A stretch of DNA of 64,000 nucleotides from Clostridia bacterium (GTDB lineage Bacteria; Bacillota; Clostridia; Oscillospirales; CAG-272), in NCBI GenBank assembly GCA_017412675.1, contig JAFPWV010000061.1, positions 4,197 to 68,196 of the forward strand. Direction: 5' to 3'. The notes under the pieces were generated by a model that made no database searches, was not told the DNA's origin, and was given only the letters and a program-made list of their open reading frames with translations. This document shows, piece by piece, positions 2,757 to 33,842 of this stretch. The number at the start of each line of letters is the position of its first letter. The stretch's first letter is position 1. The translations under genes and the position numbers were made by a program.

Positions 2757-4340
2757 TTACTGTTCGGCATCGGCATCTTCGCCGAGCGCGGTCGCCGCGT
2801 GGACCACGACGGTGCGGTCATAGCACGAGAACATCTCGTCGACCGCCGCCTTGTCCGGCTTCGGCGTCAGAAGGGATACGATCGGCACGAGCACCAGCCC
2901 GCAGACCATGGCGAGCACGCCCGCGTTGATCGGGGAGGCGAAGAAGGAGTTGATGAAGACGCGGCCCGTGAAGTTGCAGAACATATCCGCAGCCATGATG
3001 CCGACGCCGCAGACAAAGCTGACCCACACGGACGCCTTCGTGACCTTTTTCCAGTAGAGGCTGTAGAGGAACGGCGCAAGGAAGGCACCGGCGAGCGCGC
3101 CCCACGAAATGCCCATGAGCTGCGCGATGAAGGTGACGCTGGACTTGACCTGCACGATGGCCAGCGCGGCAGAGACGACGATGAAGAACACGATGAGCAC
3201 GCGGATGAGCAGCATCTGGGACTTCTGCTCGGTCTTCTTTCCATGCTTGTCGCGGACGGGAACGATGAGGTCGAGCGTCAAGGTGGACGAGGAGGTCAGA
3301 ACGAGGGAGGAAAGCGTCGACATGGACGCGGAGAGGACGAGCACGATAACGATCGCGACGACGACGTTCGGGAGGTTCTCGAGCATCTTCGGGACGATGC
3401 TGTCATAGATCGGCGTGGAGCCGTTGTAGTCGATGACGTCGGCGTAGAGTCTGCCGAAGCCGCCGAGGAAGTAGCAGCCGCCCGCGACGATGATCGCAAA
3501 GATCGTGGAGATCAGGGTGCCCTTCGAGATGTCGCCCTCGCTCTTGATGGCGTAGAACTTGCCGACCATCTGCGGCAGGCCCCAGGTCCCGAGGGAGGTG
3601 AGGAGCACGACGCCGAGCAGGGTGAGCGGCTCCGGTCCGAAGAAGGAGGTGAACGCGCCGGACAAACCTTCGTTCGTGGCGGCGGGGATCTGCGAGAGGG
3701 CGCGCTGGGCTTCCATGAAGCCGCCGTTGTCCTTCAGCACCGCGGCGATGACGAGCACGATGCCGACGAGCATGATCAGGCCCTGGATGAAGTCGTTGAT
3801 CGCCGTGGCCATGTAGCCGCCCGCGATGACGTAGATGCCCGTCAGGATGCTCATGATGACGACGCACCAGATATAGTCGATCGAGAACGCGGACTCAAAC
3901 AGACGGGAGAGGCCGTTGTAGAGAGACGCGGTGTAGGGGATCAGGAAGATGAAGACGATCACCGACGCCGCGATCCGGAGGGCGTTCGAGTCAAAGCGGT
4001 TGCCGAAGAAATCGGGCATGGTCTTCGAGTCGAGCTTCTGGGTGAGCAGACGGGTGCGGCGGCCGAGGATGACCCACGCGAGCAGCGAGCCGATGACGGC
4101 GTTGCCGATGCCGACCCATGTGGTCGAGATGCCAAACCGCCAGCCGAACTGACCGGCATACCCGATGAAGATGACGGCGGAGAAATAGGAGGTGCCGTAA
4201 GCAAAGGCGGTGAGCCAGGGCCCGACGTTGCGTCCGCCGAGGACGAAGCCGTGAACGCTCGCGGCCTGACGGCGGCAGGTGAAGCCGACACCGATCATGA
4301 CGGCAAAGAACAGGACGAGAAAGAGAATTTTGAGCAGCAT
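2757..4340 (-). CDS. sodium:solute symporter family (SSF) transporter
   Basis: ORF trimmed to the ATG at 4340, which is preceded by GGAGG. About 13 hydrophobic segments. LGGRNVGPWLTAFAYGTSYFSAVIFIGYAG is typical of PutP/PanF-like SSF proteins. Confidence 0.8.
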   Translation of the reverse strand: MLLKILFLVLFFAVMIGVGFTCRRQAASVHGFVLGGRNVGPWLTAFAYGTSYFSAVIFIGYAGQFGWRFGISTTWVGIGNAVIGSLLAWVILGRRTRLLTQKLDSKTMPDFFGNRFDSNALRIAASVIVFIFLIPYTASLYNGLSRLFESAFSIDYIWCVVIMSILTGIYVIAGGYMATAINDFIQGLIMLVGIVLVIAAVLKDNGGFMEAQRALSQIPAATNEGLSGAFTSFFGPEPLTLLGVVLLTSLGTWGLPQMVGKFYAIKSEGDISKGTLISTIFAIIVAGGCYFLGGFGRLYADVIDYNGSTPIYDSIVPKMLENLPNVVVAIVIVLVLSASMSTLSSLVLTSSSTLTLDLIVPVRDKHGKKTEQKSQMLLIRVLIVFFIVVSAALAIVQVKSSVTFIAQLMGISWGALAGAFLAPFLYSLYWKKVTKASVWVSFVCGVGIMAADMFCNFTGRVFINSFFASPINAGVLAMVCGLVLVPIVSLLTPKPDKAAVDEMFSCYDRTVVVHAATALGEDADAEQ

Positions 4341-4565
4341 AAATGCCTCCGGATTTTCATTCGATCCCGAAAAACGGGGATGGACAGCGGCGATTCCCAA
4401 AAAAGAGGCTGCAACGGGTGTGATTCCGTGCAGCCTTTTCATACAATCAGAAATTCGTCCGGTCAGTCTGCATGTCAAATCACTATTACTTTGTGAGGAA
4501 GTAATAGTAATAATAGACGTATGCAAACGTGAAGCTGTTCATCGCTGTCTCCCGGGTCCGAAATT
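4341..4565 (-). promoter_or_regulatory. long 5' leader with internal intrinsic terminator (candidate attenuator/riboswitch)
   Basis: Lies between the promoter (4572-4600) and the start codon at 4340. Contains an AT-rich hairpin CTATTAC/GTAATAG, then AGGCTGCA/TGCAGCCT followed by CTTTTTTGG on the minus strand (4397-4436). Confidence 0.45.
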
Positions 4566-4701: not shown

Positions 4702-6660
4702 TCAGAAGTAGATCGCCGGGATCTCTTCGGCGGGCTCGGCGTCGACGGGACGCTTCCCTTCTGCGATGTCATAGAGCTCGCGGTGCGTCTCGATGATCCC
4801 CGCTTCAAAGTCCTCGTACGGGCGCTGAGTCACGTCCACGATCCCGATCTGGTAGTTCTCGCCGTCGAAGCGTCCGAGATATGCCTGGTCGTTCAGGGTG
4901 AAGTAGTGCGCGCCGAGGCACATCGGATGCGAAGCCGCGCGCTGCATGTAGTAGCGGTAGGCGCGTCCGCGCTCCTTCTGGCTCGTCACGCCGCGGATCC
5001 CCGTCGCGTCGAGACCGCGGTCCAGCGCGCCGAAGTGGAATTCGCCGATCATCACGGGCTTGCCGACGAGGCGCGAGAAGCTCTCGATCGACGGAACAGG
5101 ATCCATCGAATAGCAGTTGAAGCTGAACACATCGGTGAACTCCGCGCCCGCGGCCAGCTCCTTCGAGGAGAGCCACGCGTACCGGATCCCGAGGTTGAGG
5201 TGGTCGGGATCGACCTCCCGGATCGCCTCGGACGGCACCCGGATGTATTCGCGGATCATCACCTCGGAGAACTCGCAGAGCGCCTGCTTCCCCGCCTCGG
5301 TAAAGCCGAAGGTCGACACCGGCCGGTCCATGTCCTCGAACGAGGCGTAATCCGAGCCCCATGCGGCGTTGAGGGCGTCGATCGAGCCGTACTTCTCCCG
5401 CATGAACGCGATGAGCGCGCGGCGGGAATAACTGGACTTCTCGCATTCGAGCGCGTAAGCCGCGATGTTGAGGTTGTTCACGAACGCCCACTGCGGTTCG
5501 TTGCCGAGGAAGTACCCGATGAGGGACGCCTTCCCGCGGTGCCGCTCCATCTGCCGCGCCCACTTCTTCGCGTTCTCCCGGAACTCCGGCGAGAGCGTGT
5601 CCGGGAAGTCGCGGAAGATATAGGTCTCCGTCTCCGGGTAGCCGTACAGGATCGTGACGTGCGGGATGTCGTATTCCTCGGCGAAATCGATGTCCGACCA
5701 GCACGCGACGGTGTTGAAACCCCACCGGATCATACGCCGCGCGGTCATTTCCTTCCATTTCCGGCCGTAGTCCTGCCCGAATACCCGCCAGAGGTTGTGA
5801 CGGTGCCACGAGAAGAAGTCCCGGCGCACCCAGCCGGCGGAGGCGGGATCGAGCTCGCCCGCGAGGGATCGGATCCCCGTGAGGTTGGCGTCGCCGTCGA
5901 TGTTCACGCAGTCGAGCCCCATGGAGAAGAACGCGTATCCGTCGGGATCGGCGAGGAGCCAGCGGTCCCGCCATTTTTCGAGAGTGAAGTATCCCGTGCC
6001 GTCCGTGAGCTTGAGGGAGAGATCCCCGCCCCAACACGAACGGCCGTCGTCCTCGCGTTTCGGTGCCGGCGCGTCGAGAACGGCGTGCATCCGGGCGGCC
6101 ATTTCTTCAAAGGATTTCGTCTTTCCGGGCCAGTCGGCGATGGCCTTCTGTCCCATTTCATCGACGAGGGTCCGCGTCTCGACCGGGAATTCCGGCTCCG
6201 CGTCATACACGCCGAAGGCCGCGATCTCGAAGGTCACGTCGTCCGGGGCGTCCGCGGAGGTGACGGTGAAGCGCACGGCGTCGTGATAATCGATCGGCGC
6301 GCCCTGCGTCACGGATTTCAGCTTGCCCGGCGTCCGCCTCAGGAAAAGGTTCTTTCCTTCCGCCACGGAGATCGGCAGGGCGATTCGGGTCTGGATCCCG
6401 GCGAGGACGCCCATCTTCACACCGCACATCCGGCCGTCGGCGGTCGAGAAGAACCACCCGAACACGGCGGAGCGCGCGCCCGTGCACCTCACGTCCATGG
6501 CGATCCAGCGGTCCCCGTCGAGCGGGATGCCGGAGAGCGCGCCGTCCTTCATCGGGACCGTCAGCCTGCCCTTCCCTTTCGGAAAGGTATAGAGGTTCCC
6601 GGAGACCGTCACGCCGTCCGGGGCGAGGGTTTCGAGGGGAATGGGGGTGTATCCGTTCAT
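4702..6660 (-). CDS. glycoside hydrolase, clan GH-A TIM-barrel (GH42/beta-galactosidase-like) with N-terminal beta-sandwich region
   Basis: 652 aa. LIGYFLGNEPQW (candidate acid/base Glu) and PVMIGEFHFGA (candidate nucleophile Glu) fit clan GH-A. AGGAG Shine-Dalgarno sequence upstream. Confidence 0.6.
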   Translation of the reverse strand: MNGYTPIPLETLAPDGVTVSGNLYTFPKGKGRLTVPMKDGALSGIPLDGDRWIAMDVRCTGARSAVFGWFFSTADGRMCGVKMGVLAGIQTRIALPISVAEGKNLFLRRTPGKLKSVTQGAPIDYHDAVRFTVTSADAPDDVTFEIAAFGVYDAEPEFPVETRTLVDEMGQKAIADWPGKTKSFEEMAARMHAVLDAPAPKREDDGRSCWGGDLSLKLTDGTGYFTLEKWRDRWLLADPDGYAFFSMGLDCVNIDGDANLTGIRSLAGELDPASAGWVRRDFFSWHRHNLWRVFGQDYGRKWKEMTARRMIRWGFNTVACWSDIDFAEEYDIPHVTILYGYPETETYIFRDFPDTLSPEFRENAKKWARQMERHRGKASLIGYFLGNEPQWAFVNNLNIAAYALECEKSSYSRRALIAFMREKYGSIDALNAAWGSDYASFEDMDRPVSTFGFTEAGKQALCEFSEVMIREYIRVPSEAIREVDPDHLNLGIRYAWLSSKELAAGAEFTDVFSFNCYSMDPVPSIESFSRLVGKPVMIGEFHFGALDRGLDATGIRGVTSQKERGRAYRYYMQRAASHPMCLGAHYFTLNDQAYLGRFDGENYQIGIVDVTQRPYEDFEAGIIETHRELYDIAEGKRPVDAEPAEEIPAIYF

Positions 6661-31716: not shown

Positions 31717-32553
31717 CTATTTTCTCACCCTTGCGCGGCGGAAGAGGGATGCCATGTCGGCGAGCGCGTCGGAGGTCTGCTTCCCAAGCGGGGGGAGGCC
31801 GAATTCCCGTCCGACGGAGGCGTATTTCGCGCCAGCCATCGCGTTGTAGGGTAAGAGCTCCACGGGCGAATCCCCCGCGAAATCGGCGATCGCCGCAAGG
31901 TTTTCGGGCGTGTCGGTGATGCCGGGGATGAGGGGCACGCGCAGCAGATACGGCTTGCCGCTCTCCATGAGCCAACGGAGATTCTCGAGGATCGTGCCGT
32001 TGTCCGCGCCGCAGAATTCCCGGTGCTGTGCCGCGTCGATGAACTTGACGTCCGCCATCACAAAAGCCATCGGCTCCACGGTCCGGCGGTAGACGTCCGG
32101 CGCGGCAAAGGAGGAGGTCTCGAGGGCCGAGGCGATCCCTCGTTCCCGGAGGAGTTCTGCCGTCTCCCGCACGAAATCCGCCTGCAAGAGCGGTTCCCCG
32201 CCGGAGAAGGTCGCCCCGCCGTCCTCCCCGAAGACGTCGGCATCCTGCGCGATCCGATCGGCCAGATCGGCGGACGTCCAGCGCTTCCCCGCGACGGAGA
32301 GGCATCCGTTCGGGCAGACGTGGAGGCAGCGTCCGAAGGGGCGGCATTCCGGGTGGGAGCACGGCTCGAAGCAGCGTCCGCAATGCGCGCAGCGGACGGT
32401 TTTGACACAGAGCTCGGGCTCCGGGGAGAGGCCTTCGGGATTGTGGCACCAGCGGCAGCGCAGCGGGCAGCCCTTGAGGAAGACGGTGGTGCGGATCCCC
32501 GGCCCGTCGTTTAGCGCGAAGCCCTTGATATCGAAGACCGTCCCGGATTCCAT
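31717..32553 (-). CDS. glycyl-radical enzyme activating protein (radical SAM with ferredoxin-like insert)
   Basis: 278 aa. CPLRCRWCHNPE (Cx3Cx2C), two extra Cys clusters (CAHCGRCFEPC, CLHVCPNGC) and GGEPLL. No GRE gene is adjacent. Confidence 0.85.
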   Translation of the reverse strand: MESGTVFDIKGFALNDGPGIRTTVFLKGCPLRCRWCHNPEGLSPEPELCVKTVRCAHCGRCFEPCSHPECRPFGRCLHVCPNGCLSVAGKRWTSADLADRIAQDADVFGEDGGATFSGGEPLLQADFVRETAELLRERGIASALETSSFAAPDVYRRTVEPMAFVMADVKFIDAAQHREFCGADNGTILENLRWLMESGKPYLLRVPLIPGITDTPENLAAIADFAGDSPVELLPYNAMAGAKYASVGREFGLPPLGKQTSDALADMASLFRRARVRK

Positions 32554-32675
32554 GCGTCCACCTCCGTTTCCCGCCTCGCGGGATTCCCGTTTGCCTCATT
32601 ATAGCAGATTTCGCGGAGGATGGCAAGAGTTCTGCGGGAACGAATAAAAAGTTCAGATTTCTTTCCGGAAACCTC

Positions 32676-32704
32676 TTGACAAACCCGAACCGGTGTGCTA
32701 TAAT
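32676..32704 (+). promoter_or_regulatory. SigA-type promoter of tRNA-Tyr
   Basis: TTGACA, 17 nt, TATAAT (perfect consensus), ~38 nt upstream of the tRNA 5' end. Confidence 0.6.
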
Positions 32705-32742
32705 AACCAAGCGTCCGGCGAGAGCCGATGCGAACCGAATAA

Positions 32743-32824
32743 GGGGGAATTCCCGAGTGGCCAAAGGGGACAGACTGTAAATCTGCTGGCACCGCCTTCG
32801 GTGGTTCGAATCCACCTTCCCCCA
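32743..32824 (+). tRNA. tRNA-Tyr (anticodon GTA at 32777-32779), type II with long variable arm, no encoded CCA
   Basis: Acceptor GGGGGAA/TTCCCCC, D-arm CCCGAGTGGCCAAAGGG, anticodon loop CTGTAAA, variable stem GGC/GCC, T-arm GGTGG-TTCGAAT-CCACC. Closely parallels E. coli tRNA-Tyr. Confidence 0.9.
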
Positions 32825-32828
32825 TCCA

Positions 32829-32967
32829 GAAAGAGAGACACCTTGCGTGTCTCTTTTTTCGTTGGCATCCGAGGGTGGATTCGAAGGGCGCGGGAGTGAA
32901 TGACAGCCCGGTGGGCTGCGCCGCGCCCTGGCCGACCGGAGTCGGCGAATCCACCTTCCCCCATCCA
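32829..32967 (+). repeat. tRNA-Tyr-tail tandem repeat, unit 1 (139 bp)
   Basis: Terminator hairpin plus a ~95-nt multi-helix segment. Ends with a 22/22 copy of tRNA positions 32807-32828 (CGAATCCACCTTCCCCCATCCA). Confidence 0.85.
32833..32859 (+). terminator. intrinsic terminator directly after tRNA-Tyr (first part of repeat unit 1)
   Basis: Stem GAGAGACAC/GTGTCTCTT, 5-nt loop, T-run. Confidence 0.7.
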
Positions 32968-33130
32968 ACGAAAGAGAGACACCTTGCGTGTCTTTTTTTT
33001 CGTTGGCATCCAAGGGTGGATTCGATGCCGCGGGAGTGAATGACAGCCCGGTGGGCTGCGCCGCGCCCCGGCCGATCCGCAGATCGGCGAATCCACCTTC
33101 CCCTCGAAAAGACACCGCGTGTCCGTTGTT
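32968..33130 (+). repeat. tRNA-Tyr-tail tandem repeat, unit 2 (142 bp plus degenerate hairpin)
   Basis: About 90% identical to unit 1 by eye. Ends with a 16-nt truncated tRNA-tail copy (33088-33103), then GACAC-CGC-GTGTC. Confidence 0.85.
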
Positions 33131-33213
33131 CCTTTCCGCGTTCGCATATTGCCCCCATAAACATGTCAAAAGAAACCGATCGATTCAAATCTCCTATACG
33201 ACGATATCGTGAC

Positions 33214-33741
33214 TCATCTCTCCCCCACCTCGATCCAGTACCGCTCGAGTTCGACGCCTTCGTCCGGCTCATACACCGTGGATTCATAGACGCCGCCGTT
33301 CTTGAGGATCGTTCTCCGGCTGCCCTCGTTGCCGCGGATGCAGGTGATCAGCACGCGGTCGAGCCCCAGTTCCCGGCACTTCGGGAGCACCGCCCCGAGC
33401 ATCCCGGCCGCGTAGCCCTTCCGCCGCTCGCTCGGCGCCACGGAATAGCCGATGTGACCGCCGTAGTTCGCCAGATACTCGTTGAGCGTATGCCGCACGT
33501 CGATCATCCCGACGATCTTGCCGTCCTCTTCCCGCACATAGAGATACTGCGTCGACGGGACGCGCCCCTCGGGAACCGCCGCGGGATCCCGGTGCAGATT
33601 CAGATAGTCGATCCATTCCCGCGGGTCCTCAAAGCGCCGGAGCCCGCCCGTGCCGTCCATCGAATCCCCGCAGTCGAGGAATTCCTGCCGGTAGGCGCGG
33701 ATCTCGCGTTCGTATGCCATGGTCGGTTCGATGAGCTTCAT
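33214..33741 (-). CDS. GNAT family N-acetyltransferase
   Basis: Start MKLIEPTMAYE follows GAGGAGGG. RRKGYAAGMLGAVL is the acetyl-CoA-binding motif A region. Confidence 0.75.
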   Translation of the reverse strand: MKLIEPTMAYEREIRAYRQEFLDCGDSMDGTGGLRRFEDPREWIDYLNLHRDPAAVPEGRVPSTQYLYVREEDGKIVGMIDVRHTLNEYLANYGGHIGYSVAPSERRKGYAAGMLGAVLPKCRELGLDRVLITCIRGNEGSRRTILKNGGVYESTVYEPDEGVELERYWIEVGER

Positions 33742-33842
33742 CCTGTGATCCCTCCTCAAGCATCATCTGTATCACGGATTATACACCAAAACGAGGAAAC
33801 TTGCAAGCCCCGGGCAGGATTCCACGAAAACCGGGCGCATTC

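Follow-up and report, generated by a model that had tools for sequence, protein, structure and literature searches.

An RtT-like tandem repeat array behind tRNA-Tyr in a Clostridia bacterium and the conserved structured family to which it belongs

The tRNA-Tyr locus and its tandem array

The stretch of DNA analysed here (the window, 64,000 nucleotides) comes from assembly GCA_017412675.1 of a Clostridia bacterium (Oscillospirales, CAG-272; contig JAFPWV010000061.1, positions 4,197 to 68,196), and the subject of this report is a tandem array that follows its tRNA-Tyr gene. Each 141-bp unit of the array consists of an intrinsic-terminator hairpin, an element of about 95 nt which we call X and which is predicted to form a three-way junction, and a copy of the tRNA 3′ end. 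The features of the locus are listed below, where R1 is a covariance model described in the next section.

32676-32704, + strand: consensus sigma-70 promoter (TTGACA, 17-nt spacer, TGnTATAAT; 12 of 12 matches, with TG extension)
32743-32824, + strand: tRNA-Tyr(GTA) (ARAGORN; Rfam tRNA, 51.6 bits)
32807-32828, + strand: tail copy 1 (tRNA positions 56-73 and 4 nt of trailer)
32830-32859, + strand: T1, intrinsic-terminator hairpin (AAAGAGAGACAC / GTGTCTCTTT, then a T-run)
32868-32967, + strand: X of unit 1 (X1), predicted three-way junction (R1, 74.1 bits, E=7.5e-14)
32871-32883 with 32946-32958, + strand: P1 of X1, predicted closing helix
32886-32893 with 32921-32928, + strand: P2 of X1, predicted helix
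32904-32909 with 32913-32918, + strand: P3 of X1, predicted helix
32931-32936 with 32941-32946, + strand: P4 of X1, predicted helix
32959-32967, + strand: predicted unpaired tail of X1, CCCCA+TCCA (rest of the acceptor strand, discriminator and trailer)
32971-33000, + strand: T2, terminator hairpin, duplicate of T1 (repeat search, 96%)
33009-33109, + strand: X of unit 2 (X2), including tail copy 3 (R1, 79.5 bits, E=4.4e-15)
33013-33024 with 33088-33099, + strand: P1 of X2, predicted closing helix
33111-33135, + strand: T3, degenerate third terminator copy, GACAC-CGC-GTGTC with a weak T-rich tail (repeat search, 74%)
31717-32553, - strand: radical-SAM enzyme gene, upstream flank, divergent from the tRNA and outside the element
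33214-33759, - strand: GNAT acetyltransferase gene, downstream flank, convergent on the array and outside the element

The tRNA-Tyr gene does not encode CCA, and its trailer reads TCCA. Tail copy 1 takes in the 3′ part of the T-loop, the 3′ strands of the T-stem and acceptor stem, the discriminator and four trailer nucleotides. As the original prediction, made from the letters alone, had placed them to the nucleotide, this 22-mer (CGAATCCACCTTCCCCCATCCA) at 32807-32828 recurs exactly at 32946-32967 (tail copy 2), and a truncated tail copy 3 of 16 nt lies at 33088-33103. Its estimate of two units of 139 and 142 bp, about 90% identical, agrees with unit spacings of 139-142 in the repeat search and with Tandem Repeats Finder, which reports 32807-33103 as an array of period 141 with 2.1 copies, 93% matches and a score of 511. 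The two terminator-like hairpins that it described are present, at 32830-32859 and 32971-33000, and T1 is bidirectional in form, with an A-run 5′ and a T-run 3′ of the hairpin. A 27-nt motif in the interior occurs twice, against 0 expected in shuffles. X1 begins 44 nt past the tRNA gene and on the same (+) strand, and the only promoter-like site on that strand 5′ of the array is the tRNA-Tyr promoter at 32676-32704. On the opposite strand, a near-consensus promoter (TTGCCA, 17 nt, TATAAT, with TG; 32598-32626, - strand) diverges from it and presumably drives the radical-SAM gene. Together with ffh, rpsP and the GNAT acetyltransferase gene, that gene makes up a housekeeping neighbourhood.

The two-unit array was recovered with 0-2 single-nucleotide polymorphisms (SNPs) in three independent metagenome assemblies (L122-L124; L numbers denote our loci) and is therefore not an assembly artefact. 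The unit copy number, which had been suggested for comparison between strains, did not vary: all three full-length assemblies have two units, and four further contigs end inside the repeat. One SNP in L126, C32891T, retains its P2 pair as U.G on the + strand.

A segment of about 95 nt in each unit had been folded on paper into one long arm, and segments of about 104 nt do fold in this way, with energies of -59.1 kcal/mol in unit 1 and -49.7 kcal/mol in unit 2 (z = -4.0 and -2.0, respectively). The closing helix P1 is formed by an inverted copy of tRNA positions 56-68 paired with the direct copy of 56-68, and the remainder of the acceptor strand is left unpaired, followed by the discriminator and CCA (TCCA in the window). 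Differences between the units were said to preserve pairing, which holds for P4, where X2 is altered in compensatory fashion relative to X1 (GCCGAC-CGGA-GTCGGC becomes GCCGATC-CGCA-GATCGGC), and fails for the closing stem, where the supposed change of a G.U to an A-U pair is a G-to-A difference (32871 vs 33012) that turns a G-C pair into an A.C mismatch, while unit 2 retains the G.U pair G32873.T32956.

The 5′ arm of X1 is also complementary to the tRNA itself: 32805-32819 and 32871-32885 form an inverted repeat of 15 nt with 93% complementarity, and when the 398-nt transcript is folded as a whole, the minimum-free-energy structure has the X1 5′ arm paired to the tRNA 3′ half and the X2 5′ arm paired to the X1 tail. 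X could accordingly act in cis on the tRNA-Tyr precursor, its 5′ arm pairing in read-through transcripts with the tRNA 3′ half while the X tail competes, which would couple read-through to tRNA folding or 3′ maturation. RtT, the Escherichia coli RNA discussed below, is classed as 'Cis-reg' in Rfam, and in three relatives (L107, L088, L116) the 5′ arm fits the tRNA better than it fits the decayed tail of its own X. Against such a role stand the order of transcription, in which the tRNA folds ahead of X, and the strong folds of the isolated units, which are those backed by covariation; we give this explanation little probability.

Conservation of X in Oscillospiraceae and related Clostridia

One genome per GTDB species was scanned for the arms GGTGGATTCG and CGAATCCACC separated by 45-75 nt, and at least 119 loci matched, about 40 of them from Oscillospiraceae and other Clostridia. 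Carriers include Oscillibacter, Intestinimonas, Faecousia, Vescimonas, Pelethomonas and many rumen and gut metagenome-assembled genomes (MAGs). The available sequence includes tRNA-Tyr at 29 loci, and at 26 of these a terminator and then X follow, about 45-60 nt past the tRNA 3′ end; at the other three (L077, L088, L023) X lies farther away. Model R1, built from 26 copies of X, detects about 40 copies at 70-115 bits, spread over the genomes of at least 31 GTDB species, and in the 64-kb window it finds only the two copies already known. In all R1-detected copies listed, X has the orientation of the tRNA, and in all but one (L050) it lies 3′ of tRNA-Tyr. The remaining arm-pattern matches (Desulfobacterales and others), where R1 scores 31 bits or less, were rejected: these matches, which are most of the at least 119, are unrelated multi-copy nested palindromes that do not lie near tRNAs.

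A MAFFT alignment analysed with RNAalifold gave 29 pairs, 15 of them with compensatory double changes. When extended to 42 distinct sequences, 98% of the cells are paired, double changes occur in 17 of the 29 pairs, and the covariation score is 0.42, compared with 0.04-0.07 when the partners are slid and a shuffle mean of 0.13; conservation and covariation in relatives, which the original prediction had set as its own test, are both seen in this alignment. Conservation extends to unpaired positions in the interior of X, whose mean top-residue frequency is 0.82 (0.54 in the 5′ flank), and reaches 0.93-0.97 at the GG of the P3 apical loop and the CGCA of the P4 loop. Mean pairwise identity falls from 0.92 in the tRNA to 0.74 in X, 0.57 in the spacer and terminator and 0.49 downstream, the last being equal to the shuffled baseline (0.495). 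The P1 extension tracks each species' own acceptor sequence (TTC/GAA, ATC/GAT, CTC/GAG or CGC/GCG). Relatives carry one or two units, sometimes with partial extras (L002, L066, L023, L116, L018, L067), and the neighbouring genes differ between species. On this comparative evidence, X is shown to be a conserved structured family in Oscillospiraceae and related Clostridia with the fold of a three-way junction.

The same comparisons bear on whether X might serve as a transcription insulator, in which doubled terminators and a stable GC-rich junction, as a pause or roadblock, would keep transcription from the strong tRNA promoter out of the convergent or downstream gene, with no role for a free RNA. 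Terminators that are bidirectional in form flank every unit on both sides, X has a fold of very high stability (104 nt at -59 kcal/mol), the next gene in the window is convergent, and the neighbouring genes vary between species, so that any function must be local. It is, however, the loops of X that are conserved and not the terminator sequences, and a roadblock needs neither a copy of the tRNA tail nor arms that track the acceptor. Most tRNA-Tyr loci are also without X, and several loci have no second terminator past X (L064, L096). We therefore regard insulation as a decidedly unlikely function.

Other known kinds of element were considered and rejected. A tRNA pseudogene does not fit because there is no 5′ acceptor strand; the junction strands misfit a hammerhead or other ribozyme, for which Rfam was negative; a retron or other reverse-transcriptase-linked RNA is contradicted by the variable neighbours and by there being no reverse transcriptase gene; repetitive extragenic palindromic (REP) or REPIN elements do not match a single-locus element; and a T-box would be in the wrong position. 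In the Rfam scan that the original prediction had proposed, run at gathering thresholds and at E<=10 on the window and on the X of L005, only tRNA was matched and no other family.

Comparison with RtT, tRNA-linked repeats and the rrn small RNAs

The original prediction likened the array to the E. coli tyrT locus and named that locus as the only described parallel it knew. This was too narrow, as tRNA-linked repeats (TLRs; Egan & Landy 1978, Rudd 1999, as summarised in PMC8144298) form a class with 22 members at 10 loci in E. coli K-12, and the small RNA RrB also lies between two terminators (PMC8144298). [quoted passage not shown]

X resembles these repeats in its sequence-level features. It stands directly after a stable-RNA gene and on the same strand; it ends in 18 nt of the tRNA with 4 nt of trailer at 32946-32967 and in 16 nt at 33088-33103; and its 2.1 copies fall within the range of one to five. 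Unlike the enterobacterial TLRs, X forms a family in Clostridia with a conserved interior of its own. First reported in 1978, TLRs are to our knowledge on record only from Enterobacteria and have counted as a peculiarity of that group.

The likeness to tyrT proved closer than had been claimed. The 178-bp repeat of E. coli K-12 tyrT-tyrV has the same three parts, namely a hairpin-rich interior set between an inverted copy of the T-arm and acceptor start (22 nt, with 86% complementarity) and a direct copy (AATCCTTCCCCCACCACCA), and the same closing helix. Both RtT (RF00391; rttR) and X follow tRNA-Tyr in tandem, with each unit ending in the tRNA 3′ end, and in both the closing helix joins the inverted copy to the direct copy, leaving the remainder of the acceptor strand and ACCA unpaired (the RF00391 consensus structure closes on GgGaaGG-A / U-CCuuCcC, with ccaCCACCA unpaired). 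In E. coli, L156 and the commonest X class (12 of 30 copies; range 0-7), this helix extends about 3 nt into the 3′ strand of the acceptor stem, to near position 68. Both interiors contain several hairpins, including one with a C-GCAG-type loop. The topologies differ, with P1-P2 enclosing two hairpins in RtT and P1 with a P2-P3 arm plus P4 in X, as do the interior sequences; where RtT has the internal loop GAUGAGAA / GAGUAAUCC, X has Watson-Crick TCGAA / (G)CGAAT, and the window reads GGATTCGAA ... GGCGAATCC, fully paired. Moreover, in E. coli tyrT the repeat follows the tRNA without an intervening intrinsic terminator, unlike in the X locus, and the phylum is a different one.

In the presence of terminators the window is closer to the rrn small RNAs. 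RrA, RrB and RrF lie between two terminators and are transcribed from rrn operons by read-through of T1 (PMC8144298). The order in E. coli rrnB is the 5S 3′ end, T1, RrB, a copy of the 5S 3′ end with trailer, and T2, and the sequence past T1 is partly complementary to the 5S 3′ end. The order in the window (T1, X1, T2, X2 and a weak T3) is the same dual-terminator layout, and in both cases the direct repeat comprises the stable RNA 3′ end, the trailer and the start of a terminator. RrA, RrB and RrF follow 5S rRNA whereas X follows a tRNA, and expression by T1 read-through has been shown for RrB and is inferred for X. RrA, RrB and RrF bind Hfq and CsrA through GGA loops (PMC8144298). X lacks consistent GGA loops (its P3 loop is GGU and its P4 loop CGCA). 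The biology of Hfq and CsrA in Clostridia differs from that in E. coli.

RtT-like forms, and others that bridge X and RtT, were found in metagenomic lineages. L156, in a tRNA-Tyr/Gly/Thr operon, scores 46.8 bits with the Rfam RtT model (gathering score 45), and L172 scores 24.5 bits. Six loci that we call type B (L130, L227, L246, L143, L174, L052) combine X-like hairpins with RtT-like helix boundaries, and four of them (L246, L130, L143, L052) are intermediate between X and RtT; thus L246 reads GGATGAGAAC...GCGTAATCC where E. coli has GGATGAGAAG...GAGTAATCC, and the RtT-type internal-loop motif also occurs in L156. A covariance model R2, built from the type B forms, reaches the major type of X weakly and often equally well on the opposite strand, because the order of the hairpins differs. 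Type B is not a simple inversion of the major-type interior, a reading we rejected since the two types do not differ in the orientation of the P3 apical loop CC-GGT-GG.

Among 413 tRNAs at all our loci, a sample biased towards tRNA-Tyr, the architecture follows 40 of 141 tRNA-Tyr genes and, apart from these, just a tRNA-Thr in L200 and one tRNA in L080. In L200 (5782-6308) elements follow both tRNA-Thr and tRNA-Tyr, with homologous interiors (86 of 134 aligned positions) and with arms matching the upstream tRNA of each, so that related interiors stand after different tRNAs as in the E. coli TLRs; the interior motif GTTTGCGAAGCAAAC...CGAAGCG also resembles E. coli RrB and RtT (GTTGCGAAGCAACGGCCCGGAGGG).

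L080 (1330-1560), from a Candidatus Saccharibacteria MAG, has a tRNA of uncertain identity and a terminator, then hairpins enclosed by an inverted and a direct copy of the tRNA 3′ end, and lastly another terminator; the architecture therefore occurs in a very distant lineage.

Taken together, X has every sequence-level hallmark of a TLR and is not an RtT as Rfam defines it, and the bridging forms make common descent of X and RtT plausible. Our preferred reading, which we hold with moderate confidence, is that the window carries an RtT-type TLR array of a rumen or gut member of the Clostridia, whose X would be produced as a trailer RNA when transcription reads through the terminator. No sequence between the tRNA and X qualifies as a promoter while that of the tRNA is a perfect consensus, and by this layout and the E. 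coli precedent X would be transcribed from the tRNA promoter through T1. Once transcribed, X is predicted to fold as a three-way junction, and by analogy with the E. coli TLRs its tRNA-derived 3′ segment may act as an end-processing and stability signal. Each unit could then yield a discrete RNA of about 100-140 nt, the level of which would read out transcription of the tRNA operon. Protein titration, base-pairing and an influence on tRNA-Tyr 3′ maturation are candidate downstream roles for such an RNA, and the array could grow or shrink by unequal crossing-over between direct repeats of at least 22 nt (tRNA tail, trailer and terminator).

Several results weigh against this reading. The original prediction had claimed no sequence homology to tyrT, which is formally right: RF00391 at E<=10 found no match on 32600-33250 or in the X of L005, while scoring four E. 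coli copies at 133-137 bits and, as a second control, L156. R1 gave no match to E. coli tyrT either, and R2 did not reach E. coli RtT, L156 or L172. In a sample chosen independently of X, metagenome tRNA-Tyr genes with the same T-stem, only 12 of the 111 loci with enough downstream sequence have, at the expected spacing, an inverted and then a direct copy of the 3′ segment of their tRNA, and R1 matches only four of those 12, the remaining eight being the other subtypes described above (L156, L172 and the six of type B). No promoter was found between tRNA-Tyr and X, nor one belonging to X on either strand, and X sits behind a strong-looking terminator. Within the alignment, the 10-bp core of P1 is invariant by construction, as the search pattern demanded it, and G.U pairs (9 of about 1190 cells) are similar in frequency to A.C (6), both being rare. 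These counts carry no signal as to which strand is paired or transcribed, and the structure may be formed in DNA instead of RNA. Finally, only 14 of 30 copies keep the tRNA-like tail whole as far as A73, and 13 of 30 as far as CCA, a decay that is a weak fit to an essential processing signal.

A broader and more doubtful proposal is that RtT, TLRs and X are one ancient cross-phylum class of structured RNAs on stable-RNA operons, with arms re-templated on the upstream tRNA, for which the neighbouring Thr and Tyr versions of L200 are the example. If so, there would have to be either an active copying mechanism directed at the palindromic T-loop TTCGAA or a conserved role as a mimic of the tRNA 3′ half that has no 5′ partner strand, and such a mimic could titrate 3′-end processing or decay enzymes or factors that target tRNA-Tyr.

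The kind of element, the TLR, was already known, and what is new and well supported by the sequence comparisons is its Clostridial variant X. This extends the TLR-type design across phyla, as a distinct and strongly covarying family in many gut and rumen Clostridia, with RtT-like and bridging forms in other metagenomic lineages besides. The architecture is therefore widespread and under selection, and not an accident of E. coli. Resources for further study are the alignment of 42 distinct sequences, the covariance models R1 and R2, and carriers that can be cultured, among them the Intestinimonas isolate of L077.

tRNA-Tyr as an integration site and observations at related loci

The original prediction had weighed att-site scars as an alternative origin of the units, and relatives in which foreign DNA has entered tRNA-Tyr bear on it directly. 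In L120 (5094-6640; IMG/VR contig UViG_3300029587_000498) a prophage ends in the T-loop of tRNA-Tyr, where the gene for a tyrosine integrase (PF00589) stops 135 bp before the junction cttgTTCGAATCCACCCGCGCCCACCA; past this junction lie the host terminator, a type-B X and a second terminator, so the predicted 'viral' contig includes host flank. An excisionase-type HTH_17 gene adjoins the same kind of junction in L066, followed by two X units, and in L023 an AT-rich island of 2.6 kb with a recombinase fragment and a KilA-N domain stands between tRNA-Tyr and two X units. L091 and L025 have similar junctions. Judging by these junctions, tRNA-Tyr is an active site of prophage and island integration in these bacteria, which matters for the annotation of genomic islands in Oscillospiraceae. 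In all five cases the foreign DNA is bounded by the tRNA on one side and by a new tail copy on the other, and an intact T1-X unit follows downstream; X is therefore resident bacterial sequence and not part of the integrated elements, and the att-scar explanation is not supported for the X units.

A wider form of this explanation would have X left behind by site-specific recombination at the attB in tRNA-Tyr, as a relic or by-product, whether as att scars or as a tiny non-autonomous integrative element, with its hairpins kept perfect by template-switch ('quasipalindrome') correction instead of selection on an RNA. X does share with attL/attR repeats a directly repeated tRNA 3′ segment whose start is in the T-loop, like that of att cores, and in relatives tRNA-Tyr is a live attB from the T-loop to the 3′ end (the L120 integrase is 135 bp from cttgTTCGAATCCACC...CCA; the HTH_17 gene of L066 and the island of L023 point the same way). 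The palindromic TTCGAA overlap could permit inverted joins, G.U pairs are nearly absent and balanced by A.C, and the sequence from the tRNA tail through T1 to the X 5′ arm is one long imperfect palindrome. X differs from attL/attR repeats, however, in having an extra inverted copy and a conserved, covarying interior, in lying outside the integrated elements, always on the bacterial side, and in having no mobile genes between its repeats. No integrase genes, open reading frames, mobile genes or remnants of them were found in the 141-bp units of the window, and the flanks are housekeeping genes, in agreement with the earlier statement that none is nearby. BLAST of 32825-33140 against phage and plasmid collections gave no match, and a scan of 2.9 million viral contigs for the arm pattern gave a single match, the prophage-flanking host sequence of L120. 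Sequence is conserved in the loops and junctions and falls to the random baseline in the flanks, which is not expected of neutral scars, and the orientation of X is fixed. A recombinational origin of X is thus unlikely in our view; the architecture may have arisen by recombination, but this does not explain the conserved loops and covarying stems.

Some related loci are arranged in unusual ways. In L050 (308-532) X follows tRNA-Gln while its tail is still of the tRNA-Tyr type (TTCCCCCACCA), which suggests that a rearrangement removed or displaced tRNA-Tyr. Two contigs carry a second tail, terminator and X downstream of the tRNA-Tyr-X locus, at a distance of 17.6 kb in CAMJPK010000003 (L049 and L025, at about 13.4 kb and 31.2 kb) and of 3.7 kb in JAFSUG010000011 (L071 and L021). 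The second X has the orientation of the first and a different subtype; the genes examined between the paired sites are ordinary (LysR, SLH, L-PSP, aminotransferase), and no integrase was found in the examined parts of the 17.6 kb of CAMJPK010000003.

Two kinds of short repeat were noted near X. Just 3′ of X, arrays of short GC hairpins (L014 ~6460-6650; L030 ~5000-5200, - strand; L093 ~5320-5500; L200 6344-6420) are spaced by TATATCATCA or ATGATG motifs and then take on a mirror-image arrangement. Rfam at the gathering threshold gave no match on those of L014, L030 and L093, and the L200 hairpin region scores 40.7 bits for Gut-1 RNA (RF01706), under the threshold of 50. Past the terminator of X, clusters of short direct and inverted TTCACT/TTCAT repeats (L045 ~4230-4400, L036 ~900-1050, L010 ~2660-2760, L091, L040) may be arm-type binding sites for a recombinase or another small tandem repeat; the cluster in L045 is placed between two copies of the terminator of X.

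The nested palindrome met in the arm-pattern scan (GGTGGATTCG..CTTAATCCACCCTAC..GTAGGGTGGATTAAG..CGAATCCACC, about 90 bp) is multi-copy in MAGs of Desulfobacterales, Syntrophobacterales, Thermodesulfobacteriota and Jettenia. Copies lie at L008 5176-5265; L012 5455-5542; L029 143-234; L031 6213-6303; and L034 3709-3799 and 7403-7495, with others in L007, L004, L046 and L019. They look like repeats of the REP or miniature inverted-repeat transposable element (MITE) type whose ends coincide with tRNA T-arm sequence.

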